From positions 96,001 to 160,000 of the forward strand of contig CAYLJV010000003.1 in the NCBI GenBank assembly GCA_964384105.1: 64,000 nucleotides of DNA, written 5' to 3'. The notes beneath the pieces are model-generated. The model had not been told where the DNA came from. It saw only the letters and a program-made list of their open reading frames with translations, and did no database searches. The stretch is from Candidatus Hadarchaeota archaeon (GTDB taxonomy: Archaea; Hadarchaeota; Hadarchaeia; Hadarchaeales; JAGGTB01). The translations under genes and the position numbers were made by a program. Below, in pieces: positions 15,691 through 52,940 of the stretch. Numbering within the stretch: position 1 is the stretch's first letter; every line of letters begins with the position of its first letter.

Positions 15691-15936
15691 ATGTCAAAGA
15701 AAGCTACAACACTTTATCTTGATGAGGGAACAGTAAAGGAAGCTAAGAGATTAGGTTTTAACTTATCCAGGTCTTGTGAAATAGCGTTAGAACGGAGAAT
15801 ACTGGCTGAGAAACGCAGGTTATCATTCGATTATTCGGAAAACTCTAAAGAAGTCAAACCTAAAATTAATCCTACAGTGATTGCGGGGGTTGCCAAGTCA
15901 GGTCAACGGCGCAGCGTTGAGGGCGCTGTCCCATAG
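15691..15936 (+). CDS. CcdA/RHH-like protein, probable N-terminal fragment of a split integrase, reading into tRNA-Leu
   Basis: GFNLSRSCEIALERRI vs integrase GLNVSKSCELALERRI; stop codon lies inside the tRNA. Confidence 0.65.
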   Translation: MSKKATTLYLDEGTVKEAKRLGFNLSRSCEIALERRILAEKRRLSFDYSENSKEVKPKINPTVIAGVAKSGQRRSVEGAVP

Positions 15937-15970
15937 GGGTTCCGGGGTTCGAATCCCCGCCCCCGCACCA
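15883..15970 (+). tRNA. tRNA-Leu (GAG)
   Basis: GCGGGGG/CCCCCGC acceptor stem, CAGCG-TTGAGGG-CGCTG anticodon arm, long variable arm, GGTTCGAATCC, encoded CCA. Confidence 0.97.
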
Positions 15971-18822: not shown

Positions 18823-18853
18823 CAATCTATGGCATGGATCAATCCAAACCTAC
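18823..18853 (+). repeat. Hairpin element copy A (partial), core CAATCTATGGCATGG
   Basis: Core identical to copies at 21029-21094 and 26333-26399. Confidence 0.8.
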
Positions 18854-18882
18854 TAGACTAGTAGTTACCCACTTATGACTAT

Positions 18883-18996
18883 TTAGATTAACATTGCAGT
18901 AGCATCCAACTCTATCTGACAGTGAATACACCTGTCCCTGCCATCTTCAATAGTTTCCTTGCTAAGTTTTTTACCACACTCAACACATTTCTTCAT
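18883..18996 (-). CDS. 37-aa C4 zinc-finger microprotein 1 (MKKCVECGKKLSKETIEDGRDRCIHCQIELDATAMLI), not in ORF track
   Basis: AAGGAG SD, TATAAATAG upstream, paralog at 21117-21230 with conserved frame and synonymous changes. Confidence 0.85.
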   Translation of the reverse strand: MKKCVECGKKLSKETIEDGRDRCIHCQIELDATAMLI

Positions 18997-19344
18997 TATC
19001 AAAACTCTCCTTGATCGGCCCTAAGGTCTGAAGCACTATTTATAGGTCACTGTTTGCAGGGTTGAAAAGTGGAAATATGAGTAATGATGACTAATTCTTT
19101 TAATTCCGGAGGATTATTTGGGAATACTTAAAGGAGAGGGGAGAGTAGTTCATACGAAGTCAAGTTTATTGGACGTTACTAAACGTCCACCTTAAACCCG
19201 AGCTGGGCGGTCCCCCCCGACCGTTCAGCTTCCTCCCCCCTTCTCAAAAATTTATTTATATTCATAGACTTCTCTCGAGAGAAGGAACTAAATCAAATGT
19301 TCACAGATGATATCTCTACAGGGAAGAGAACGTATTGTTAACTT

Positions 19345-20298
19345 TCAATACACTTCTACCTCTTCATCGAGCTCTTCAGCTAGTTCTTTGTACCTGTTTC
19401 TAACCGTGACTTCGGTAACGTCTGCAACTTCTGCCACTTCTCTCTGGGTTCTCCTTTCACCACATTTCAGCGCGGCTATGTAGAGTGCTGCTGCAGCTGT
19501 TCCAGAAGGAGTTTTGCCCGATGTCAATTTTTCTTCTTGTGCCTTCCGAATTATCTTCATAGCTTCAACCCTGGCTTCATCTGATATATTCAGCTCGCTT
19601 CCGAACCTGGCTACATACCTGCTTGAGTCCGTGGGGGGAAGATCAATGTCTAATTTTCTTGCAATAAATCGATAGGTGCGTCCTATCTCTTTTTTATCCA
19701 CTCGGCTAACTTCAGTTACCTCTTCGAGAGTTCTGGGCATTTGAGCTTCCCGACAGGCTGCGTAGAGAGTAGCTGAGACCACTCCCTCTATCGAACGGCC
19801 TCTAATTAAATCAGCGTATAAAGCTTCCCGATATATTTTGGAAGTATTTTCTCTCACGTTTCTCGGTAAACCAAGCTGAGAGGCCATCCGATCCATCTCA
19901 GAAAGGGCGAAAGCTAGGTTACGGTCCTTGGCACCTGAAACCCTAATACGTTTTTGCCATTTTCTAAGACGGTACATTTTATAGCGTTTTCCTGGAGACA
20001 GGGTCTTTCCTCGACTGTCTCTATTGCTCCAATCGATTTGGGTTGAGAGCCCCTTATCGTGAATAGTGTACGTCATTGGAGAGCCTCCCCGACTGCGCTC
20101 TTCTCTTTGCTCTTGACTGAAAGACCTCCACTCAGGCCCCCTATCCTTAATATCTTCCTTTATAACAAGGCCGCAGCTCCTGCAAACAATCGTATTCTGT
20201 TGATAATCCCTGACAGTAACACTATTCCCACAATTAGGACAATGAAACTCTGAACTTCTGTTCTTCACTTTCTTAGAGGAATAAGTATCGGTCAACAA
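19345..20298 (-). CDS. tfb: Transcription initiation factor B paralog 1
   Basis: CPNC/CRSC ribbon, [26 protein letters not shown]. Confidence 0.96.
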
Positions 20299-20487: not shown

Positions 20488-20581
20488 AATTCCTCATCTA
20501 TTCAGTTATCTCAAAGTAATCAACTATCTTGTTTATGGGTAGAGTGGTCACTGGAAGTGAACAGAAAATTGACAAATCATC

Positions 20582-20607
20582 TAAGCGGACTAAATGGTTT
20601 AATCAGG
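20582..20607 (+). repeat. 26-bp motif copy 1 (TAAGCGGAC-N5-RGKTTAATCAGG)
   Basis: Also at 20928-20953 and 25649-25674. Confidence 0.8.
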
Positions 20608-20927
20608 CCACCTCTTATCATAGGTGAGGTCTTGATTGAGTAATAATAAAAACACTTTACAAGGAGAACCAAGATAGAATTGTTTGTCCTGCCGGAAAGA
20701 TATCCAAAATATATCCTTAAGTCATCAAACCTCGGAAATTTTTTAAAGTGATGCCGAGGAATTTCAGTTCTCTTTGCTTTCAATTAGTTCAAGAAATCAC
20801 GAATCAACGGGGGATTGCCAGTCCCGGCAGGGCTTTTCCCTTTATATCAAGTATGTCTTTTTATGCAAAGTCGCAGGACTCTCAAGCTATTGTAATAATT
20901 TTGAATTAAATATCTCCTATATGAAGA

Positions 20928-20953
20928 TAAGCGGACAATTTAGGTTAATCAGG
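20928..20953 (+). repeat. 26-bp motif copy 2
   Basis: TAAGCGGACAATTTAGGTTAATCAGG. Confidence 0.8.
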
Positions 20954-21028
20954 CTAGCCAAGTAATTTGGTTATTGTCTGAAGAGGGGAGATTATAATGA
21001 AAAGAGTTAGACTACCAAGTAATTTCCC

Positions 21029-21094
21029 CATGGTAGAGCGTCGATACCGCTATACCCTCAATCTATGGCATGGTTGAGTCGAAACCCGCTAATA
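21029..21094 (+). repeat. Hairpin element copy B
   Basis: Near-identical to 26333-26399 apart from the first hairpin loop. Confidence 0.88.
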
Positions 21095-21116
21095 GTAGAG
21101 GCCCAATTGCGATTTT

Positions 21117-21230
21117 TTAAATTAACATCGCAGTAGAGTCCGACTCGGTCTGACAATTAAAACAACGGTCCCTGCCCTCTTCAATAGCTTCCTTACTCAA
21201 TTCTTTTCCACACTCTATGCACTTTTTCAT
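21117..21230 (-). CDS. 37-aa C4 zinc-finger microprotein 2 (MKKCIECGKELSKEAIEEGRDRCFNCQTESDSTAMLI), not in ORF track
   Basis: AAGGAGTGA SD, TATAAATAG upstream, paralog of 18883-18996. Confidence 0.85.
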   Translation of the reverse strand: MKKCIECGKELSKEAIEEGRDRCFNCQTESDSTAMLI

Positions 21231-21780
21231 TTTCAATTCACTCCTTGATCAGTCCCAGAGAAAGAAGTTCTATTTATAAATTATGAATATCTCTTTTCAA
21301 GTTATTTCAGTTATTTCTTCTATGAACTCTCCAGCAAGCTCGACTTTATTGCCAAAACTTCTTATTAACTGTTTGGATTTACTTTCAGAGAAAAAAGCTC
21401 CTTTTACTCGCAATACATACTTTAGTTACCAACCTCGTAAATTTTTATCCCAAAAAACCGGATTTTACTTGAATTAGCTTCCTAATTGAACGAAAAATCT
21501 GAAGGAATCAAACCCGGGTCTTTTACTTATAAATAAAACCCTTGAAGTCCCTTTTCTTTATAGATAATTGGGCTTACAGGGGATTTATCTCCGAATAAGA
21601 CAAGTTGTTTTACTATATAGATAGTTTTCTTCTGTTTTTATTCCTTAGAAAGGTAAAAAAGAAAGTAAAAGCATGAAGGTGGCCTTCACGAAATTCCGAG
21701 AGAAGTTGGAAAATCAAGATTGAAATCACGAACCGAAAAGCATTTAATTTCAAATTCTGAGTTCGGGAAGGTGAGTTTGA

Positions 21781-21997
21781 GGGGCCGGGATTGTTACCCT
21801 TTCGCGGGCAGGTTGAAAAGCAGCCGATCGGTAGCCGACCGAAGCAGAGCCTGCCGGCATCGCCCGACCCCTGTGCCCCATTCTCAGTAAAAACAAGGAG
21901 GTGAGAAACCCCGAAGGGACACCAAAACCGCCAGTGTTGAAAACTCGGTTCCTAAAGAGAAGAAGTTCACCGGCGGAATCGTAAAACACATGACAAT
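21781..21997 (+). ncRNA. Unrecognised structured ncRNA, copy 1
   Basis: GC-rich, multi-stem, covaries with copy 2; CGAAAAG-CATTTAAT promoter-like element at 21734. Confidence 0.75.
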
Positions 21998-22243
21998 TAA
22001 TGTTATTAAACGAGGAATTCTTTTTGGCTTACTCCCTCCCATATATAATTTAACAATATGTTAAAAATATTCCTATTTTCTGTAATTCTACCTTCACAAA
22101 ACTTTAGCATAAGTAAATAAAAAGAATAAGGAGAGGTCCCTTGGTTCTGAAGAAGGGTCAGGGAGTTCCTCCATTTTTTTACTTTCACCCAACTCAGACA
22201 ACCGCTTAACAGTACATAACCAAAGAGTTAAATCTATGATAAA

Positions 22244-22507
22244 TTGGGAAGGCCCATACCTACTTTCAGATATGTAATCGAGAAAGAGATAGAAAATTGG
22301 AAAGAGTTCAAGAGAGCTTTGAGTAGGAAAGACAAAGAGATTTTCAATAGGATCATGGAGTACTGTAGGAAACACATTCCAGCTTGTTCTCAGACCAACA
22401 ATCCAGAACCCTTTCGGCCTATGATTATTTCTATTATTCTAGAGCAACTAAAGAAATTGAATTTTCCTGAAGAAGCTATCTCGAAAATTCAAGAGTTGAT
22501 AGAATAG
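22244..22507 (+). CDS. Small helical protein of the family usually found beside PolB2 (arCOG07300-like)
   Basis: MGRPIPTFR..W..FKRAL..DKEIF..PF..MIISIILE pattern. Confidence 0.65.
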   Translation: MGRPIPTFRYVIEKEIENWKEFKRALSRKDKEIFNRIMEYCRKHIPACSQTNNPEPFRPMIISIILEQLKKLNFPEEAISKIQELIE

Positions 22508-22571
22508 AAAGAATAAATTCAAAAGGGCAGAAACTATTTTGGTTTTTTACTTCTGTTTTTCTTTAATTGAC

Positions 22572-23507
22572 TTAATATGTTTCCAATTCAATTTCGAGTT
22601 CTTTGGCCACATCCTTATACCTGTTCCTGACAGTGACCTCGGTCACCCCCGCCACCTCAGCAACAGATCTCTGGGTTACTCTCTCCCCACCTTTCAAGGC
22701 GGCTATGTAAAGACACGCAGCAGCCGTCCCACTGGGACTCTTGCCCGAAGTCAGTTTTTTCTCTTGGACTCTCTTAATCAAATACATAGCATTCGTTTGG
22801 ACTTCTCCAGAAATACCAAGCTCACTACCAAAACGAGTCACATAACTGGCCGGATCAGTCGGGGGAAGGTGGATATCTAACTTTCGTGTTAAAAACATGT
22901 AACTACTAGTGATCTTCTTCATCTTAACTCGGCTTACCTCTTCGATCTCCTCAAGAGTTCGAGGCATCTTTGCTTCACGACATGCTGCATAAAGTGTAGC
23001 TGATACGACACCTTCGATTGATCTACCACGAATCAAGCCCTTTTCAACAGCCTCTCTGTAAATTTTTGACGCGATCTCCTGCGTACTTCTCGGCAGACCC
23101 AGCTGAGATGTCATCCTACTCATCTCACCAAGTGCAATGATCAAATTTCTATCACCTGAACTAGCGATCCTGCTTCGATTATGCCACTTTCTCAGTCGGT
23201 ACATCTGCTGGGACTTTTTTGGAGACAGATTCTTACCCTTCGCATCTCTGTTCTTCCAGTCAATATTAGTGGAAAGTCCTTTATCGTGAATAGTGCCCGT
23301 TGAAGGAGGCCCGGATCTCTTTTTATTCTGATATTCTTTGGCACTGAAAGCTCGCCATTCTGGACCCCTGTCCTTAATACTCTCTTCTATGATCCTACCG
23401 CAATCAGCACATATTCTAACGTTTTGCTGATAATCCATAATCCTGGAGGTACTACCACAGTTCGGACATTTAGCGGATGCTTTCTCAGAACCCTTAATAG
23501 AACTCAC
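22572..23507 (-). CDS. tfb: Transcription initiation factor B paralog 2
   Basis: CPNC/CADC ribbon, [26 protein letters not shown]. Confidence 0.96.
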   Translation of the reverse strand: MSSIKGSEKASAKCPNCGSTSRIMDYQQNVRICADCGRIIEESIKDRGPEWRAFSAKEYQNKKRSGPPSTGTIHDKGLSTNIDWKNRDAKGKNLSPKKSQQMYRLRKWHNRSRIASSGDRNLIIALGEMSRMTSQLGLPRSTQEIASKIYREAVEKGLIRGRSIEGVVSATLYAACREAKMPRTLEEIEEVSRVKMKKITSSYMFLTRKLDIHLPPTDPASYVTRFGSELGISGEVQTNAMYLIKRVQEKKLTSGKSPSGTAAACLYIAALKGGERVTQRSVAEVAGVTEVTVRNRYKDVAKELEIELETY

Positions 23508-24026
23508 ATTATTACTCTTCTTCCCATCTACTAGTACTTTCCTCCGATTTTTCAGAATACGCTAAGGAGGAACTTAAGTAGTTCAAAAATGATTTTGAAA
23601 AGCCAGCCAAATATAAACTCTAACTCTACACCAAAAACACTTAAAAACTCGAAAACATCAAAAATACACTCAATCGATAAATAAATACCTAAAAAGTCTT
23701 AGAATTTTGTTCCAGACCATAAATATTCTTAAATAAGGTGACAGAACACCATATTTATTCTCATAGGGAATCCAGTTAACTCTTTCATAAAAGTTAAAAA
23801 TTAACTAATTGTTTTTCAATCAAAATATCAATTTTATCCATATAAAATTCATACCTATATCATCTTAGATGATATGGTAAAATCGGAATATTGATAGTTT
23901 TTAGTTTTTAGAAGTTTTTACTGAAATGAGAAATGAATAGTTTCTAAAGAGAAAGTAGATAAGAATTGAAAATGGTGGATAAGGTTTTAATTGTATCCAA
24001 GATTAGGAGGATTTGGAGGGGTTACA

Positions 24027-24242
24027 ATGAGCAAAACTAATCAATCAGTCACAGAAGAAGATGATGAGATTTTCAGCAATGAAAGATTTGCAGAAACAAC
24101 AATACAGAGGATAAGCAAGTATGTAAAAAATTACGGTGAGAAGGACAAGGAGGATATTTACAAGCTACTGAAACGGTGTTATGTGGCTCTGTGCCGATTG
24201 AGGAATTGGGAGCCACAAGATCTCGACAAATTCAGGGATTAA
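24027..24242 (+). CDS. Hypothetical protein
   Basis: ATG after GGAGGGG SD. Confidence 0.55.
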   Translation: MSKTNQSVTEEDDEIFSNERFAETTIQRISKYVKNYGEKDKEDIYKLLKRCYVALCRLRNWEPQDLDKFRD

Positions 24243-24346
24243 TGCATTATTTGGATGGTTATCTCCGATTTAACTTGAAAAATCCTAAATAAAAAATCGA
24301 AAAGTATTTTAATTCCAAAACAGTGATTTTGATAGATTGAAAATAA

Positions 24347-24563
24347 GGGGCCGGGATTGTTACCCTTTCGCGGGCAGGTTGTTGCCTATACCAGTTTAGG
24401 TCGGTCGCCAACCAACCACAGAGCCTACCGGAACGCCCGGCCCCAGAGCCCCCTTAAACCGAGCCAATGGGGAGGTGAGAAACTCCATAGGGGGACTCAT
24501 TCCGCCGGTGTTTGTAAATTCTGTCCTCAAGAGAAGAAAAGATACCGGCGGGAGCTTGATAAT
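24347..24563 (+). ncRNA. Unrecognised structured ncRNA, copy 2
   Basis: First 35 nt identical to copy 1; compensatory changes; CGAAAAG-TATTTTAAT at 24298. Confidence 0.75.
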
Positions 24564-24817
24564 GGAAATGTTAACTAAAGCATCTGAACTAGAAAGAAGC
24601 CTTTTCTTTAATCCACCCCCCCAATTGATTCATCGGAATTAAACTCCGTATGCAAAGACCCTTTGCCATCTGAATGTGTGCATTTAAATTTTACGAATTG
24701 TGTCGAAAGTTTTAGGGCAAGGATTTTGTTTGAAACTGTGGAGCTTATGGTTCACTTAAGGTAAATAATGAGGAGAGTTCAACAAATTTTCAGTTAAAAA
24801 CTCCTATTTTTTAGTTT

Positions 24818-25075
24818 CTAGCTACGAGGAAGCAAATTCCTCATCTGATGGTATTTTTCGAGAAATTTTGAGCCCTTTTCAGTTAAATCCCACTGTAAAG
24901 GCGAGTGGGCCCTTACTTCAACGAGACCATTTTTCCGTAGCTGTTCGAGATACTCATTGCATCTCTTAAAGTTCAAGTTTGCTTTATAAACAATATGGGT
25001 TTTTCGAGATTTATGTTTAACAGCTGTTAGAAGATCTGCATAAACATCGAATCTTGTTCTTCGGTCCCTACCCAT
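24818..25075 (-). CDS. Winged-helix transcription regulator (COG3432/HTH_45-like)
   Basis: RRTRFDVYADLL..KTHIVYKANLNF..LTEKG. Confidence 0.85.
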   Translation of the reverse strand: MGRDRRTRFDVYADLLTAVKHKSRKTHIVYKANLNFKRCNEYLEQLRKNGLVEVRAHSPLQWDLTEKGSKFLEKYHQMRNLLPRS

Positions 25076-25648
25076 AATACCCTAAGTTGTTCTTACCAAA
25101 CCACCTTACTTAAGGTTAGCTTACTACTAGTACAGAACATTATTCTTAGGAAGGGTAAAAAGCGAACTTTCTGTATTTTTTAACATAATGTTTGAAGAAA
25201 ATATTTGTTAGTGTCGGATTGAAAGTTTTAGGATAGAAAATAAAAAGAATAAAGGGGTATACGCCTTTTCCCTTTCTCTCTTAAACAATATGATTAGAAA
25301 AAATATAGTGGGTTTGTTTAATAATTATTTATATGGAATAATTTTGTGAAAAAAATAGAACTCTCTAAAACTAAACAGAGAGAAAATTGGAATAGGATCA
25401 GTAATGTGATAAAAATTAGTGCAGTTAGTTTTTTGCAACTGTCCCTACCATTTTCTATTTAATTTTCGTACAATTTACCTACTATTTTGAAGGCTCTGGA
25501 TTATCATACCATACAATAATCGTTGTAGTTGTTCCTTATTTCGGATTTTCACTACTTGCTTTAAAAAAACTGGAGACCACTAAAAAGCCTCACAGAAAAA
25601 TAGGCTATACTAAAGAGATCTGAAGGTTCCCAAATGAATTGGATCATG

Positions 25649-25674
25649 TAAGCGGACTGAATGGGTTAATCAGG
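25649..25674 (+). repeat. 26-bp motif copy 3
   Basis: TAAGCGGACTGAATGGGTTAATCAGG. Confidence 0.8.
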
Positions 25675-25784
25675 TTAGGTTATTTGAAACGGTAATTTAG
25701 TTATTAATAGATTTTCTTCGAGTTTGGCTCATAGAACCCTATAAGTTTTGAAACAAGACTTGTTTATTCTTATGTGAGTCCCTT

Positions 25785-26321
25785 ATGAAAAAGGATAGAA
25801 AATCAGATAGGAAGAAAAAGGTTGCTATCGGGATAATCATAATAATTTTAGTAGTGATAGTCGCATACCTATATTTCTCTGGAGGTTCTACCGAAGCAGA
25901 AGAGGTCAACAGTGTTGACATTGAAGTAGAAGGTGATACCAATCTTGGTTTCTCTGGAGAATACAGGATGAGGGCCAGAGGTTTGCAAAAAGAGAAACCA
26001 GACGTGAGGTTGGATATAACTTCTGGAAAACCCGCTATGACTATCTGGATCTACAATAGCGAGGAGGGCGAACTATATGGGTATAATTCTGATGACGACT
26101 ATTGGGTTAACCTTTCGGAAATGCCCGACTTAGAGTATCTACAAGAATTCGCAAAATCAATGAGAGACTACGTGAGTTCAGGAGAGGGTGACATGACAGT
26201 AGAATATCAAGGGTCGAAATATGAATTGAGAATTAATGAAGTAAACCCATCACTCCCCGACAGTCTATTCACTCCACCAGAAGATGCAAAAATGGAGAAC
26301 TTAGTTCCAAAGAATCTGTAA
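25785..26321 (+). CDS. Membrane-anchored extracellular protein
   Basis: Basic N-terminus plus TM helix; C-terminal LPDSLFTPP. Confidence 0.75.
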   Translation: MKKDRKSDRKKKVAIGIIIIILVVIVAYLYFSGGSTEAEEVNSVDIEVEGDTNLGFSGEYRMRARGLQKEKPDVRLDITSGKPAMTIWIYNSEEGELYGYNSDDDYWVNLSEMPDLEYLQEFAKSMRDYVSSGEGDMTVEYQGSKYELRINEVNPSLPDSLFTPPEDAKMENLVPKNL

Positions 26322-26332
26322 ATTCAAACTTA

Positions 26333-26399
26333 CATGATAGAGCGTATCTGACGCTATACCCTCAATCTATGGCATGGTTGAGGCCAAACCCGATTAATA
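26333..26399 (+). repeat. Hairpin element copy C, about 10 bp from integrase stop
   Basis: Matches 21029-21094. Confidence 0.88.
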
Positions 26400-26409
26400 C
26401 TTACCTTAA

Positions 26410-27438
26410 TCAGAGAATTTCAATTCCAACTTTATCATATATCTTCTTCAAGTGCTTTGGTGTTTGTCCATTGTAGTTTCTCAAGTCAATACTTCCGAAG
26501 TGCCCAAGTAACATTTCCTTAATGTCAGTTGATCCGCCTTTCCTATCCCATTCTTGTGAGAAGAACTTCCTGCAGTGCTTCAGTTTTAGGTCTGGTTTTT
26601 CATCCATCTTGTTTGTAATGAGATAGATAGCCTTGTGAATGAATGGTCTTTCAGGAAACATTCCCTTCAACTTCTTCAGTCTCTTCTGTGCCTTTTTGTT
26701 GAAAACTACAATTCTTTCTCCTTTGGTCTTGGTCTCCTCCGCTGGAAGATTGATAATCCTATCATCGAGATTAATATCCTCCCAGTCTAACCTGTAAACC
26801 TCCCAGGGCCTCATCCCAGTAACAGCAGAAAGGTGAACTGCAGTCTGTGCTCTGTAAACGTATTTGTGTTCAGTGCCCTCGTGATCTAATTCATCCATAA
26901 GATTGAGAATATCTTCCTTCTCCACTATCTTAGGCCTGTGTTTACTCAAATTGGGTTTCTTGATCTTCTCAATCCAGTAAACGTTCATCTCCTTGAAGAA
27001 CTGCTTGATTGCTTGAATGTCATCGGAGAGAGTTCTGTTAGAAACCTCATCTCTTCTCTCGTTAAGATAATCAGTCACATCATTGAGACTGCAGGACCAA
27101 TTCACGTGTTCTCCCAGTTTTTCTAATTTTCCCTTAACTGCATTTATTCTTAGAGAACTTCTACCAGCCGCTTTTAGTCTGTTACAAAACTCTTCTATAT
27201 CTTTCTTCGAAAATGAGACCTTGTGATTATTGCCTTTGTTTCCATTACCATTCGGATAACTTCCATTTTGTGGTTTGAAGTTGTGATTGTTTGCTACATT
27301 GGAGTCTATTTCCTCTAGAGTTATGATTCTTCTCTCCAGAGCTAATTCACAGGACTTAGATACATTAAGCCCCTCTTCCTCGGCCCTCTCAACTAAACTT
27401 TTGGATATTTGAACTGTAATTTTATCTTCTATATTCAT
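26410..27438 (-). CDS. Tyrosine recombinase/integrase with N-terminal CcdA-like RHH domain
   Basis: TGMR, TKTK, KHCR, LGH, RNY catalytic set; ATG 27438 likely start. Confidence 0.92.
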   Translation of the reverse strand: MNIEDKITVQISKSLVERAEEEGLNVSKSCELALERRIITLEEIDSNVANNHNFKPQNGSYPNGNGNKGNNHKVSFSKKDIEEFCNRLKAAGRSSLRINAVKGKLEKLGEHVNWSCSLNDVTDYLNERRDEVSNRTLSDDIQAIKQFFKEMNVYWIEKIKKPNLSKHRPKIVEKEDILNLMDELDHEGTEHKYVYRAQTAVHLSAVTGMRPWEVYRLDWEDINLDDRIINLPAEETKTKGERIVVFNKKAQKRLKKLKGMFPERPFIHKAIYLITNKMDEKPDLKLKHCRKFFSQEWDRKGGSTDIKEMLLGHFGSIDLRNYNGQTPKHLKKIYDKVGIEIL

Positions 27439-27440
27439 TT

Positions 27441-27495
27441 GATTCAGGGTGCAGTACACTCTAACTCGTACATAAAGGTCGCTCTGAGGAGGATC
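27441..27495 (+). repeat. 55-bp repeat, copy 2 (probably contains the integrase promoter on the minus strand)
   Basis: Matches 12004-12058; TTTATGTA on minus strand about 30 nt before ATG 27438. Confidence 0.85.
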
Positions 27496-27570
27496 AAGTT
27501 TAAAAAAGGAGTTTAAAAGTGAAATCACGTGTTTTTTTAGCTTATTACTTATATAACATTAACAATAGAT

Positions 27571-30500
27571 ATGAAAGTTCTTCTCGTTGATGATGAGCCT
27601 GATATTTTAGAACAGGCTAAAATCTTTCTCGAAAAAGAGGAGGAAAGGTTGAGTGTTGAAACTGTTGCTTCAGCTAGGGAAGCTCTGAATTTATTGGAGA
27701 AAAACGAATATGATGGTATAGTATCGGATTACCAGATGCCTGAGATGGATGGGCTTAGCGTTTTAAAAATTTTAAGAAAGGAAAGGCAAAATGGCATTCC
27801 ATTCATAGTGTTCACCGGTAAAGGTCGTGAGGATGTGGCTATGAAGGCCTTGAATCTTGGGGCCGATCGTTACTTGCAGAAGGGCGGTGATCCTAGGTCT
27901 CAGTATGGTGTATTGGCACAAGCTATAGTCCAAGAGATCGAGCATTGGAAGCATAAAAGGGAATTAAGGAGTATTGGTTGGCTTCTCACAAAGGGGGTAG
28001 AAGAAACAACTTACGAACCACCTTATGACGATCTAACAGAGCTGAATACTGAAAGAACGATATTGGACTCCATAGGAAAAGACCTGCTTCAAGATATTGT
28101 GGATCATTTTATGAGCTTACTTGACACTTCAAGTGCAGTCTACGAGAAAAATGGTGATTATGCATTAGGAATCTTCGCTTCCAAATGGTGTAAATTCATG
28201 GATAAAAAATCCAGAGATCTCTGCAACAAAGATGATAATCAAGAAGCATTAGATTGTGGAAAATGGATCTGTCACGAATCCTGTTGGAATGCTGCAAAAA
28301 TCTCAATGGAAAAGGGTAAACCTGTCGACGTTGAATGCAGCGGAGGAATAAACCTGTACGCAGTTCCAATCCGAGCGGATGGAGAAATTATTGGCTCCAT
28401 AAATTTCGGTTATGGAGAACCGCCAAAAGATCCAGACAAGTTAGAAGAGCTCTCAGAAAAATACCAGGTAAGTATTGAGGAACTCCGTAAAAATGCGAGT
28501 TCATACGAACCTCGTCCTCATTTCATTATTGAAGTTGCCAAGAACAGGTTACGAACTTCAGCCAGACTGATAGGGGAAATCGTGAGAAGAAAAAGGTCTG
28601 AAAGAGAATTAGCAAAGGAAAGAGATAGAGTTCAAAAGTATCTGGAAACCGCTGAAGTAATGATAGTAGCGATAGGCAAGGACCACAAAGTTATGGAGAT
28701 AAACAGAAGAGGTTGTGAAATACTCGGTTATGATAAGAAAGAAATTATTGGAAAAGACTGGTTCGAGAATTTCATTCCTGAAAGAACGAGAAAAAGCTTG
28801 CTTAAGGAGATTCTAGAGCCGTTGATGGAAGGAAATATTGACAAAGCCCAAAGGCATGAAAATCCTGTACTGACCAAAGACGAAGAAGAGAGAATTTTGT
28901 CCTGGAGAAATACCGTGCTAACTGACGATACTGGAGAAATCATCGGAACTCTAAGCTCAGGAATGGACATTACCGAACAAAAAGAAATGGAGAACGAGCT
29001 GCGTGAGAGTGAGGAGAAGTACAGGCGACTTTTCGAGACCGCTCAAGATGGAATGCTTATACTGAACGCCGACTCCGGAGAGATAATGGATGCTAATCCT
29101 TACATTCAAGAACTTTTGAGTTATTCGAAGGAGGAGCTTGTGGGAAAGGAGCTCTGGCAGATAGGAACCTTTAGGGATATTGTTGAGAACAAGGAGAAGT
29201 TTGAGGAGTTGGTGGATGAGGATTATATTCGTTACGAAGATATGCCTCTGGAAACGAAAGGCGAAGAGGAGGCTTCGGTCGAGTTCGTCAGCAATACGTA
29301 CGAGGCCGGTGGAGAAAAAGTAGTGCAGTGTAACATCAGAGATATTACGGAGAGAAAGAAGGCTGAAGAGGAGTACAGGAATCTTTTCGAAACTATGGCT
29401 CAGGGCGTGGTTTATCAGGATTCTGAAGGAAACATTATTTCGGCCAACCCTGCTGCTGAAAGGATGTTGGGGTTGACGGTTGATCAGATGAAGGGGCGGA
29501 CTTCTAGACATCCTGAGTGGAAGGCAATTAGGGAGGATGGGAGTCCTTTTCCTGGAGAGGAACATCCTGCCATGGTTGCTCTACGAACGGGAGAGGAAGT
29601 GAGAGATGTCGTTATGGGTGTTTACCATCCTGAAAAAGAAGACCATGTCTGGATCAATATAAATGCATTACCTCGGTTTCGGGAAGGTGAGGAAGAACCA
29701 TACCAGGTGTATACTACGTTCGAGGACATCACTGAGCGGAAGAGAGCGGAGGATAAACTCCGTGAGAGAGTCAAAGAATTAAGCCTGTTTTACAATTTTT
29801 CGAAGCTTGTTGAAGAGTTGGGGAATTCTCTGGAGAATATACTTCGGGGATTAGTGGATTTGATTTCTCCTGCGTTGCAGTATCCAGAGATAACCTGTGC
29901 CAGATTAGTTTTGGATGATGAGGAGTTTAAAACAGACAATTATGAGGAATCCAAGTGGAAACTGAAAAGCAATATTCTTGTGGAAGAGGAGAACAGGGGT
30001 TTTCTCGAGGTTGATTATTTAGAAGAAAAACCTGAACTGGACATAGGTTCTTTCCTAGAAGAAGAAAGAGATCTCTTAGAGGCTATCACAGAACGATTGG
30101 GCAAGATAATAGGCCGACTTGAATTAGAAGAAAAAGTCCGAGAGAGTGAGGAAAAATTCAGGAGTTTGTTCGAGTCTTCCCAGGACGCGGTTATGGTTCT
30201 TAAACCGCCCAAATGGGAGTTTACCTCTGCCAACCCGGCTACCGTGGAAATGTTTAGGGTGGAGGACGAGTCCGATTTTTGCTCGAGACCGCCAAGGGCG
30301 TATGCCCCTGAAAAACAACCGGACGGTCAGTCGTCCAAGGTAAAAGCGAAAAAGATGATCGACAAAGCGATGAGCGAAGGTGAGGTTTTCTTTGAATGGA
30401 CACATAAACGGTTAGATGGTGGGGAATTCCCTGCCACGGTTTTACTAAGTCGAGTGGAGGTCGGAGAGGAGAGTTTTTTGCAAGCTACAGTGCGAGACAT

Positions 30501-31526: not shown

Positions 31527-32015
31527 ATGAGTGATAAGATGGAGAAATTCAAAAAAAGGGAATTTAGACAATACCGTGAATTGATAGACGGTATGAACGA
31601 CGCCGTATTTATCCACGATCTAAATTGTAATTTCCTTTCAGTGAACCAAGTGGCTGTCGACCGGCTTGGCTACTCGGAAGAAGAACTACTTTCCATGGGG
31701 TTAGATGATATAGATGGTTCGAAAGAAGGAAAAAAGGTCAAAGATAGAATCCAAGAAATAGAAAAAAAAGAAACGATAGTTTTTGAATCCATTCATGTTA
31801 CGAAAAGTGGGGAAAAAATCCCCGTAGAGATAAGTTCAAGTCCGATAAATTATCGAGGCGAACCGGCAGTCTTCAGCGTGGTTAAAGATATTAAGGAAAG
31901 GAAAAGAGTGGAGGAGGCCTTGCGCGATATTACTTCTGCCATGGTTTCCCAAATAGGTTCCGGGGTTCGAATCCCCGCCCCCGCATCACAACCCCAATTA
32001 GCTAAAATAATCTAA
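31527..32015 (+). CDS. PAS-domain protein, apparently truncated at att site
   Basis: Single PAS; last codons run through the tRNA-derived repeat. Confidence 0.7.
   Translation: MSDKMEKFKKREFRQYRELIDGMNDAVFIHDLNCNFLSVNQVAVDRLGYSEEELLSMGLDDIDGSKEGKKVKDRIQEIEKKETIVFESIHVTKSGEKIPVEISSSPINYRGEPAVFSVVKDIKERKRVEEALRDITSAMVSQIGSGVRIPAPASQPQLAKII
31956..31985 (+). repeat. att repeat 1: tRNA-Leu 3' end
   Basis: GGTTCCGGGGTTCGAATCCCCGCCCCCGCA identical to tRNA 3' end. Confidence 0.93.
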
Positions 32016-33434: not shown

Positions 33435-33728
33435 CTACGATTCCTTCTCTTCTCCCTGATCCACTCTGTCTTTTAGAGCCTCCACCCTCTCTGGAATATA
33501 CGCTGACTTCCGGTGGTCAACCCCAATTACTCCTAAATCATCTCCATGTTTCCAGTAATAGATTCTGTAGTCACTGACTCGGAGTGCCCAAATTCTCCCG
33601 CGAATGTGTCTAACATCACCACGTTCAGTTTTGTAATAATTTTCTATGCTACTTATGATTCTTTCTCTTATCTCGGAGGGGAGTTTATCGAGTTCACGTA
33701 AAGCAGCTTTATGGCATTTGAGGGTCAA
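33435..33728 (-). CDS. RelE/ParE-family toxin
   Basis: ALRELDKLP..WALRVSDYRIYY..VDHRKSAY. Confidence 0.85.
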   Translation of the reverse strand: MTLKCHKAALRELDKLPSEIRERIISSIENYYKTERGDVRHIRGRIWALRVSDYRIYYWKHGDDLGVIGVDHRKSAYIPERVEALKDRVDQGEEKES

Positions 33729-33928
33729 CCGGCCCGCTCCTCTTTAAGTCGCTGGAATGAAACGTACTCCTCATCGGGAGCTCCAGCCCGACGCTCTAAT
33801 TCCTCTAATCGAGACTCATATGCAGCAATAAGATCCATAATTATCTCATCGTAAGTTTCACCCTTGTGTCCGATACCCCGAAGCCTTTCTCTTGTTTCCC
33901 GCTTGACTTGAATAGTAGTTTTAACCAT
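33725..33928 (-). CDS. Cognate RHH-like antitoxin
   Basis: TTIQVKRETRERL..GETYDEII; overlaps toxin start. Confidence 0.8.
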   Translation of the reverse strand: MVKTTIQVKRETRERLRGIGHKGETYDEIIMDLIAAYESRLEELERRAGAPDEEYVSFQRLKEERAG

Positions 33929-34105: not shown

Positions 34106-34137
34106 GGGGTTCCGGGGTTCGAATCCCCGCCCCCGCA
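34106..34137 (+). repeat. att repeat 2: tRNA-Leu 3' end
   Basis: GGGGTTCCGGGGTTCGAATCCCCGCCCCCGCA. Confidence 0.93.
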
Positions 34138-52463: not shown

Positions 52464-52755
52464 TGCTGGCGAGCCGGTGGACGGCTCACGGGGATCTCCT
52501 GAGGAAACTCCGCCCACCGGACGGGACCGCAGGGTCGAAAGGACCCCGGCTGAGAGGCCGGACCCTGGAACAGAAACGATACCTCCCAGTCTCCAGGCGA
52601 TGATGCAGTCAATGCTGAGGTCGGGCTGGTGGAGGGTGGAACGGCCAATCTGCGGGGTGCAAGGGCAAAAAACCGCCGATGAATTCCCGTCGGAGGCGGG
52701 TGGTAGCCCGCTAAGCTGAATGCCGTCTAGAACAGAAGGCGGGTTACGGCCGGCA
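52464..52755 (+). ncRNA. rnpB: RNase P RNA
   Basis: GAGGAAACTCCGCCC and AACAGAAGGCGGGTTA (P4), GGAACAGAAAC, GGGTGCAAG; terminal P1 pairing. Confidence 0.95.
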
Positions 52756-52940
52756 CGCCGGTTTCATTTCGACTTCTAATATTCTTGATTATGGTTTTTA
52801 CAGATATCCTTAAACACTTCAGATTTTGTTATGAATCTCAGATTTCCGACTTGAAAAGACCAAATTTTCTCTATTTTTAGAAAAAGGATAGCTTTTTACC
52901 CAAAATTTACTTAAACTCTTTTCGCGAATAAGCACTTCGT

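Follow-up and report, generated by a model that had tools for sequence, protein, structure and literature searches.

This analysis concerns a stretch of 64,000 nt from Candidatus Hadarchaeota archaeon (assembly GCA_964384105.1, contig CAYLJV010000003.1, positions 96,001-160,000), which we call the window, and a GC-rich RNA-like unit that occurs in it twice, as copies A and B. The same unit is found seven times in the genome (G000; the assembly has 1.62 Mb and is 90% complete). We favor the explanation, with a probability of about 0.45, that these units encode a young and lineage-restricted family of stable, structured non-coding RNAs (ncRNAs) of about 250-270 nt that would act in trans. Apparently this RNA-like gene family has not been described before. 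Its structural support is moderate, and it turns out narrower and less exotic than an earlier reading of this DNA, made without database searches (the sequence-only reading), had proposed. Coordinates are those of the window unless a contig is named.

The sequence-only reading had reported two copies. Their likeness is real but the count was wrong, since BLAST together with a covariance model (R1; 209 positions, 47 pairs) identifies seven copies genome-wide. Copy A (C3:117781, plus strand; model core at 21781-21988) scores 206.5 bits with R1 and copy B (C3:120347, plus strand; core at 24347-24563) scores 194.4 bits. The remaining five are C4:51202 (minus strand), C4:84899 (plus), C1:135831 (minus), C1:397615 (plus) and C1:154023 (minus). 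All seven reach 145-206 bits, while the next-best genomic site has 14.9 bits. Pairwise identity among the copies is 50-77%. The identical 5' start of A and B that had been noticed before extends over 36 nt at 100% identity (21780-21815 versus 24346-24381); beyond it the two copies are about 73% identical and can be aligned over their full length. As judged from the alignment, six of the copies fall into two subtypes with three members each and one copy is divergent; A and B belong to different subtypes. Because the up- and downstream parts of each copy share one subtype, we rejected a hybrid or attachment-site (att) origin of the identical 36 nt. The GC content of the core is 0.51-0.56, compared to 0.40 in the genome and 0.25-0.35 in the flanks.

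The repeated unit has a gene-like anatomy. It comprises around 350 bp, from about -50 (-49) to about +300 (+297) relative to a GGGG start, with sharp borders; outside of them the flanks of the seven copies share no similarity, and a comparison of the neighborhoods of different loci revealed no protein common to them. The order within the unit is a promoter with B recognition element (BRE) and TATA box, a GC-rich core of three hairpins, an AU-rich tail and a T-run. In copy A the promoter (21734-21751, plus strand) consists of the BRE-like CGAAAAG followed by the TATA-like CATTTAATTTC, and in copy B (24298-24316, plus strand) of CGAAAAG followed by TATTTTAATTCC. CGAAAAG lies 47 nt (A, 21734) and 49 nt (B, 24298) upstream of GGGG, as the sequence-only reading had stated, and is followed by TTTAAT or TTTTAAT at -38. 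These boxes occupy the same position in five of the seven copies. Their type and spacing are those of the tRNA promoters of this genome, as the motif CGAAAAG-n-TTTAAT and its distance match the promoters of tRNA-Val(gac) (for example ACGAAAAGATTTAGAT), tRNA-Tyr, tRNA-Leu and tRNA-Ser(gct). The units carry a promoter of the stable-RNA type at the right distance, as befits an independent RNA gene.

From these signals, the putative transcript likely starts around 8 nt before GGGG and ends at the T-run at 22021-22025 (A) or 24602-24609 (B). This would give a plus-strand RNA from 21773 to 22026 for copy A, with the start placed about 26 nt past the TATA center and the end at a T5 run, and one from 24339 to 24610 for copy B, with predicted ends, an aligned tail and the T-run TTTTCTTT. 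The length of about 215 nt given before has to be corrected to a probable transcript of about 250-270 nt. The AU-rich tail measures 50-70 nt (GAGCNUGAUAAYUGAAA...), and the T-runs past it resemble the runs after tRNA genes of the same genome. All seven units have a C-rich box past the T-run, at about +250 to +275: in copy A it is ACTCCCTCCC (22031-22040, plus strand), directly past the run, and in copy B CCACCCCCCC (24613-24622, plus strand). The C-rich boxes (ACTCCCTCC, CACCTCC, CCACCCCCCC) resemble the 3' end of 16S rRNA, and upon transcriptional read-through such a box could pair with the Shine-Dalgarno (SD)-like hairpin described below.

The structure of the core is supported by RNAalifold and by the covariance model, which recover the stems listed in the sequence-only reading, including a T-A to A-T swap: P1 (GGGGCCGGG/CCCGRCCCC), P2 (GGCAGGT/GCCTRCC), GTG-CCC/GGG-A-CAC, a GGAG..CYCC hairpin and CCGCCRGTG/YACCGGCGG. 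Hairpin 1 has a length of 91-99 nt (21781-21871 in copy A, plus strand). Its P1 of 9 bp (21781-21789 with 21863-21871) is followed by an asymmetric internal loop (5' strand of 14 nt, 3' strand of 3-4 nt), with P2 and P3 within; the 14-nt strand of this loop (21790-21803) is nearly invariant among the copies. Hairpin 2 (21873-21922 in copy A, plus strand) consists of P4 with a bulged A around a GGAG-GUGAGAAA-CUCC hairpin; in copy A these are GTGCCCC/GGG-A-CAC and GGAG-GUGAGAAA-CCCC (21897-21912). Hairpin 3 (21928-21976 in copy A, plus strand) is formed by P6 of 9-10 bp, in copy A CCGCCAGTG/CACCGGCGG, and closes a loop of about 31 nt with AAGAGAAGAA, which in copy A reads AAAGAGAAGAA (21954-21964).

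Compensatory changes, claimed before from two copies, exceed the controls on two alignments. Alignment A2 was made with MAFFT only, from the seven copies and unfitted to any structure; A4 is model-fitted, includes a homolog from a congener (G002) and leans towards the model. Double changes occur at 11 of the 47 pairs in A2, compared to 4.1±1.8 in shuffles (none of 500 reached 11) and 1-6 in slid controls. For A4 the numbers are 20 of 47 pairs, 7.0±2.1 in shuffles (0/500) and 4-10 in slid controls, and five of the seven P4 pairs show double changes in this alignment. A U·G pair in P2 is kept in 6/8 sequences. The most conserved region is not helical: positions 1-30, made up of the 5' strand of P1, the 14-nt loop strand and the 5' strand of P2, have a mean pairwise identity of 80-94%, while the remainder has 40-78%. 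A protein-coding gene is not supported, given the lack of a conserved open frame among the copies, again in line with the sequence-only reading; the longest stop-free stretches range from 17 to 86 codons in differing frames, and the alignment of the copies contains indels of 1, 7 and 25 nt. The long-range pseudoknot proposed there does not hold. The duplex between loop strand and tail has -4.0 to -5.5 kcal/mol in the seven copies, which 18-61% of 500 shuffled tails equal, and the heptamers supposed to pair, TGACAAT in copy A and TGATAAT in copy B, are at non-homologous positions.

The distribution of the unit is narrow. BLAST of copy B against 60 relatives gave no match beyond its own genome, and R1 applied to 60 relatives and the family detected one real homolog, that of congener G002 with 46 bits. 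It keeps only hairpin 1, with compensated pairs in P2 and P3, and sits in the spacer between pstA and pstB, antisense to that operon. Two weak R1 hits (G005, 18.8 bits; G016, 17.8 bits) were dropped because most of the model is deleted in both. A second model (R2) revealed nothing further in the class (65 genomes) or the phylum (52 genomes), at a completeness of at least 80%; searches of over 40 genomes used stricter filters. The unit is present in two of the 65 genomes of the class, and these represent two species of one genus. An exact-motif scan of one genome per GTDB species gave 38 hits, all bacterial, the best with 20 bits under R2 compared to 79-111 bits for true copies; by our own arithmetic this is about the number expected by chance for 18 fixed bases in 596 Gb. 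The same kind of scan gave six hits in JGI metagenomes, all unrelated on reading, and 0, 7 and 7 hits in viral contigs, none above 10.5 bits with R1. In the literature the letters of the motif were found in no paper text, supplements being outside the search, and keyword searches returned nothing relevant.

The genomic surroundings connect several copies to tRNA genes. Copies A and B lie within a 16-kb island, and the proposal that this island is mobile is supported by its borders. On the left is tRNA-Leu(GAG) (15883-15970, plus strand), whose 3' 30 nt (15938-15967) form the left att-type repeat; on the right a direct repeat of this 3' end (31956-31985, plus strand; 30/30 nt) closes the island, and ARAGORN predicts no tRNA there. 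A second direct repeat of 32 nt (34106-34137, plus strand) closes a further segment of 2.1 kb. A tyrosine integrase is encoded within the island (26410-27528, minus strand; PF00589, 1.3e-11; phrog_1 integrase, 1.2e-24). The three copies of the tRNA-Leu(GAG) 3' end delimit two integrated segments in tandem, one of 16 kb and one of 2.1 kb. Outside the island the five other copies are found in unrelated contexts among housekeeping genes, three of them less than 450 nt from a tRNA gene on the same strand. C4:84899 starts 78 nt past tRNA-Ser(GCU), which itself follows the signal recognition particle (SRP) RNA; C1:135831 starts 168 nt past tRNA-Pro; and the start of C1:154023 is 447 nt from tRNA-Thr, with the tRNA downstream. 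Synteny was compared for three copies. In congeners it stops exactly at the 3' end of tRNA-Ser, where the RNA unit is not kept; G001 has tRNA-Pro and a palindrome, then a gene and no copy of the unit; and the site syntenic to C4:51202 lacks the unit in four congeners. Rearrangements of gene order within the genus are too extensive for dating that insertion. The gene for the TFB paralog tfb2 (22572-23507, minus strand; PF00382, 1.7e-44) lies between copies A and B but outside the RNA unit. The special tie between RNA and tfb2 that had been suggested finds no support, as five further copies lie elsewhere and the two on contig C4 have no TFB gene on their contig.

How might such an RNA work? The functional core would be hairpin 1 with its almost invariant 14-nt loop strand and adjoining stem strand, while the helices would drift and be partly repaired by compensation. 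The loop may be a platform to which a partner binds, probably a protein rather than another RNA, and the RNA itself would act in trans. The units would be propagated as DNA together with their promoters and settle in intergenic sites, often beside tRNA genes or within integrated islands that target tRNA genes.

Several observations weigh against this proposal. The covariation is based on seven paralogs and one homolog, and with related sequences controls of the shuffle type make significance look higher than it is. Each copy has between 5 and 12 of the 47 pairs broken, and a part of the copies may therefore be in decay. A·C mismatches occupy 27 cells of the helices and are thus no less frequent than G·U pairs (20 cells); strong selection on a plus-strand RNA would not lead one to expect this. 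With two of 65 genomes of the class holding the unit, any function should be dispensable or very young. A search for genes of candidate partners (TnpB, reverse transcriptase) found one distant TnpB and no reverse transcriptase, and no partner or target of the RNA emerged. The six public sequencing runs with the sequence, from two studies, are all DNA and include no RNA run. Finally, the reverse complement folds as well or better: its consensus energy is -43.7 kcal/mol compared to -38.4 kcal/mol for the plus strand, the mean minimum free energy of single copies is -80.9 versus -73.3, and the z-score favors the minus strand in five of the seven copies. Copy B alone is more stable than its shuffles (z -3.26; 0/200 fold as well), copy A alone is not (z -0.73; 44/200). 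Folding energy thus leaves the transcribed strand undecided. We infer transcription of the plus strand because of the tRNA-type promoter at a fixed distance, the downstream T-runs, the excess of A over T on this strand in all seven copies and the conserved U·G pair in P2.

The main rival explanation, in our judgment somewhat improbable, is that the unit is a decaying non-autonomous mobile DNA unit or cargo of an integrative element, whose hairpins are a relic or serve mobilization, for instance recombinase recognition as DNA or RNA, without any cellular job. This would account for the tRNA neighborhood, the patchy distribution and the many mismatches. It fits with the sharp borders without shared flanks, with two copies in an att-bounded island that carries an integrase, with the end of congener synteny exactly past tRNA-Ser and the unit-free tRNA-Pro locus of G001, and with the site of C4:51202 being empty in four congeners. 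It also fits with the three further copies close to tRNA genes: around 2.5% of the genome is that near to a tRNA gene, and the chance of at least three of seven copies falling there is about 5e-4 by our own arithmetic, which was done after the pattern had been seen. The equal frequency of A·C and G·U, the 5-12 broken pairs and the similar folding of both strands are what DNA hairpins would show as well. However, none of the seven copies has terminal inverted repeats or target-site duplications, none of the six genomic matches to integrase domains is on C1 or C4, the contigs with the other five copies, and the single TnpB gene is far from all copies, with no reverse transcriptase in the assembly. 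Public assemblies from the same mat (contigs of four runs over 20500-27800) reveal no copy-less form; these contigs show no joints and break at repeats. In addition, neutral decay produces neither an excess of compensatory changes nor an unpaired strand as the most conserved part. A doubtful alternative, clearly less probable than a mobile DNA unit, is a family of base-pairing regulatory small RNAs (sRNAs) in which the near-identical 5' 35 nt are the seed for target mRNAs, as in bacterial paralogous sRNAs. The far better conservation of the 5' 30-35 nt, identical in A and B, would agree with a seed, as would the own promoter and T-run of each copy and the presence of several diverged paralogs in one genome. 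Yet when the entire assembly was searched for sequences complementary to the 15-nt loop strand, with up to three mismatches allowed, only the copies themselves came up, besides scattered hits with two or three mismatches that form no pattern. The best complementary stretch is an 11-mer and, by our own arithmetic, at chance level, and helix P1 engages 9 of the 35 nt. Antisense scans with three other motifs likewise gave nothing above chance. With a genome completeness of 90%, a target may be absent from the assembly.

A little less probable again is a function of the minus strand, or convergent transcription of both strands, in which the plus-strand promoter would be nothing but the T-rich end of the minus strand. 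The minus strand folds better in the consensus and in five of seven copies, in every copy TATA-like strings can be read past the C-rich box (such as TCGAAAAAAATTATAT on the minus strand of C1:397615), and CGAAAAG is CTTTTCG on the opposite strand. But those strings lie at a variable distance from the core, while the BRE and TATA boxes of the plus strand are fixed in five of seven copies and follow the tRNA consensus; T5-T7 runs lie past the core on the plus strand; and the U·G pair in P2 (6/8 sequences) would turn into a conserved A·C mismatch. Loops of functional RNAs are usually rich in A over U, and those of the minus strand would be U-rich. Least probable of all, and in our view very unlikely, is a decoy, either for the ribosome through pairing of the SD-like GGAGGUGA with the 3' end of 16S rRNA, or for TFB, TBP or RNA polymerase. 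Ribosome-binding sites in this genome usually carry the motif GGAGGTGA, with many sites of the GGAGGTGAAAAA type, and this motif is displayed in hairpin 2 of A, B and C1:397615. Binding to the ribosome had been suggested by the sequence-only reading, but the exact motif is restricted to these three of seven copies; it is altered in the other four (GGAGTTGA, GGAGTGAG, AGAGATTA, GGGGGTGA) and missing in the G002 homolog, and half of it is paired in the model. For five of seven copies one of the roughly 11 TFB loci is no more than 10 kb away, which amounts to only three of five independent loci (p ~0.02, own arithmetic, again computed after the pattern was seen), the two C4 copies are without a TFB gene on their contig, and nowhere does the structure resemble an open promoter.

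Comparison with known RNAs and elements gave no match for the unit, and in this respect the sequence-only reading was right to call it unrecognised. Rfam 15 searched with cmscan over the whole window at gathering scores found only RNase P RNA (52469-52758), and in 21600-24700 at E values up to 10 there were five weak hits, none of which overlaps copy A or B. Archaeal SRP RNA (RF01857) was rejected as an identity, since its sole genomic match is C4:84328-84638 (190 bits) and no copy of the unit was matched. The same is true for a tRNA or tRNA-like gene, as ARAGORN finds only neighboring tRNAs and none inside any copy. A retron or another ncRNA associated with reverse transcriptase is not supported, with no match to PF00078 in the 90% complete assembly. 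A riboswitch or cis-acting leader was rejected as well. The next gene is on the opposite strand for three of the seven copies (B, C4:84899 and C1:135831) and ambiguous for C1:154023, downstream of which open reading frames (ORFs) overlap on both strands. Where the downstream gene is on the same strand (three copies), it begins 410-460 nt from the RNA start. The downstream genes of the different copies are mutually unrelated.

Miniature inverted-repeat transposable elements (MITEs) and elements of the IS200/IS605 type resemble the unit as short, gene-less, dispersed and structured repeats with sharp borders, and like IS200/IS605 elements the unit lacks inverted ends and target duplications. In contrast to both, it has a tRNA-type promoter, it shows compensatory changes, and its conservation is highest in an unpaired strand. 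A MITE was rejected because no consistent inverted or direct repeat of at least 7 nt was found in any of the seven copies between -110 to -20 and +230 to +360. An omega-RNA of IS200/IS605 elements or a PATE was rejected too: the sole TnpB match (C3:6807-7001) is about 110 kb from the nearest copy, R1 finds nothing unit-like beside it, and no copy of the unit follows a large ORF on the same strand. Pf7 is an archaeal H/ACA guide RNA with three hairpins, and with such RNAs the unit has in common three consecutive hairpins, a size of around 200-250 nt and large internal or terminal loops. We nevertheless rejected an H/ACA guide RNA. There is no ACA box after hairpin 1, because only one nucleotide separates hairpin 1 from hairpin 2; by reading of the alignment P6 is followed by GAGCNTGATAA, and in six of seven copies GAGCATGATAA stands in place of an ACA; the internal loop of 14 by 3-4 nt is not a two-sided pocket; and no H/ACA model of Rfam matches. 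Inspection by eye revealed no tandem G·A motif beside P6.

Closer in kind are orphan RNA genes. The Hgc and SscA RNAs of Methanocaldococcus and Pyrococcus, reportedly described by Klein, Misulovin and Eddy in 2002, are said to be GC-rich orphan ncRNA genes of AT-rich archaea. The unit shares with them the GC-rich island in an AT-rich genome, an own promoter, a stable fold, the lack of an ORF and an unassigned function. However, the Rfam models of these RNAs do not match A or B, and the unit has seven paralogs, is larger (about 250 nt) and occurs in two species. OmrA/OmrB and Qrr1-5 are bacterial families of paralogous sRNAs with a near-identical 5' end. They are likewise dispersed paralogs with own promoter and terminator, best conserved in the 5' 30-35 nt; the unit differs in being archaeal, three times longer and mostly helical, with a conserved 5' end that is partly in P1. 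Work on Methanothermus fervidus is said to have described a linkage of SRP RNA and tRNA-Ser. In our genome SRP RNA and tRNA-Ser(GCU) are adjacent on one strand (C4:84328-84821; L082:1501-1994). The pair is kept in all three congeners that could be read downstream (G002, G003, G004), and SRP RNA itself was found in all five congeners searched. Copy C4:84899 follows directly on the same strand and has the same promoter type, but unlike the pair this extra RNA is not kept.

To our knowledge, few large structured RNAs of unassigned function have come from archaea and almost none from uncultured lineages, and the interplay of archaeal mobile elements with host transcription is poorly understood. 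Because of its gene-like anatomy, measurable covariation and unusually conserved unpaired strand, the unit offers a concrete candidate for a novel RNA-protein particle. A connection to archaeal mobile elements is given by its siting beside tRNA genes and in a tRNA-Leu island that also encodes TBP and two TFB proteins. As a long shot, the RNA might be the working part of a new RNA-protein system of archaeal integrative elements that target tRNA genes, in which the loop of hairpin 1 recruits a factor of the element or the host. If true, the RNA would steer an element with its own TBP/TFB set, either towards insertion beside tRNA genes or in switching the transcription program of the host, and it would represent a new class of mobile-element RNA in archaea. 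The impact is limited by the narrow distribution, as only two species, both from one genus, carry the unit among the 65 class genomes.

The 16-kb segment encodes TBP, two TFB proteins each accompanied by a 39-aa zinc-ribbon ORF, a winged-helix protein, an 87-aa protein with viral relatives and the tyrosine integrase, as well as a 1316-aa response-regulator/histidine-kinase with PAS domains followed by a 162-aa PAS-domain protein. The 2.1-kb segment contains a RelE/ParE-type pair (33435-33928), and a pyruvate kinase gene lies past the last repeat. Part of the island is a duplicated module on the minus strand (18883-20298 and 21117-23507) consisting of the 39-aa zinc-ribbon ORF (CxxC...CxxC) and TFB; the two TFB proteins are 66% identical, and the region of the small ORF is 75% identical on the DNA level. 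In the second module about 1 kb, with RNA copy A and the 87-aa ORF, is inserted between the zinc-ribbon and TFB genes. A direct repeat of 60 nt (21029-21088 and 26333-26392, 87% identical) is found nowhere else in the genome. Its two copies directly follow the zinc-ribbon ORF and the stop codon of the integrase, respectively, and a third, shorter copy (the last 33 nt, around 80% identical) is located at 18823-18855, just past the first zinc-ribbon ORF. The repeat might serve as an inner att site or as a common 3' element. The set of TFB genes is unusually large, with about 11 TFIIB-repeat gene loci in 1.6 Mb. Contig C12, with 1584 bp, represents a 97.7% variant of the tfb2 region and points to strain heterogeneity at the island.

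A palindrome of around 30 nt (TTTTTTGTTACACCCATAACAAAAAA type) occurs at C1:135908-135937 and at many other sites, as well as in G001-G006, and is thus scattered over all genomes of the genus with 94-100% identity. It is often located just past tRNA genes, such as tRNA-Arg(ccg) and tRNA-Pro, and looks like a shared terminator hairpin or an element similar to repetitive extragenic palindromes (REP-like). ARAGORN also reports tRNA-like genes with irregular anticodon loops at C1:351151 and C1:581189 ('atag' and 'cc'), which may be intron-containing or otherwise unusual tRNAs. The archaeal RNase P RNA of the window (52469-52758) scores 219.8 bits and has a TATA-like box about 30 nt upstream.

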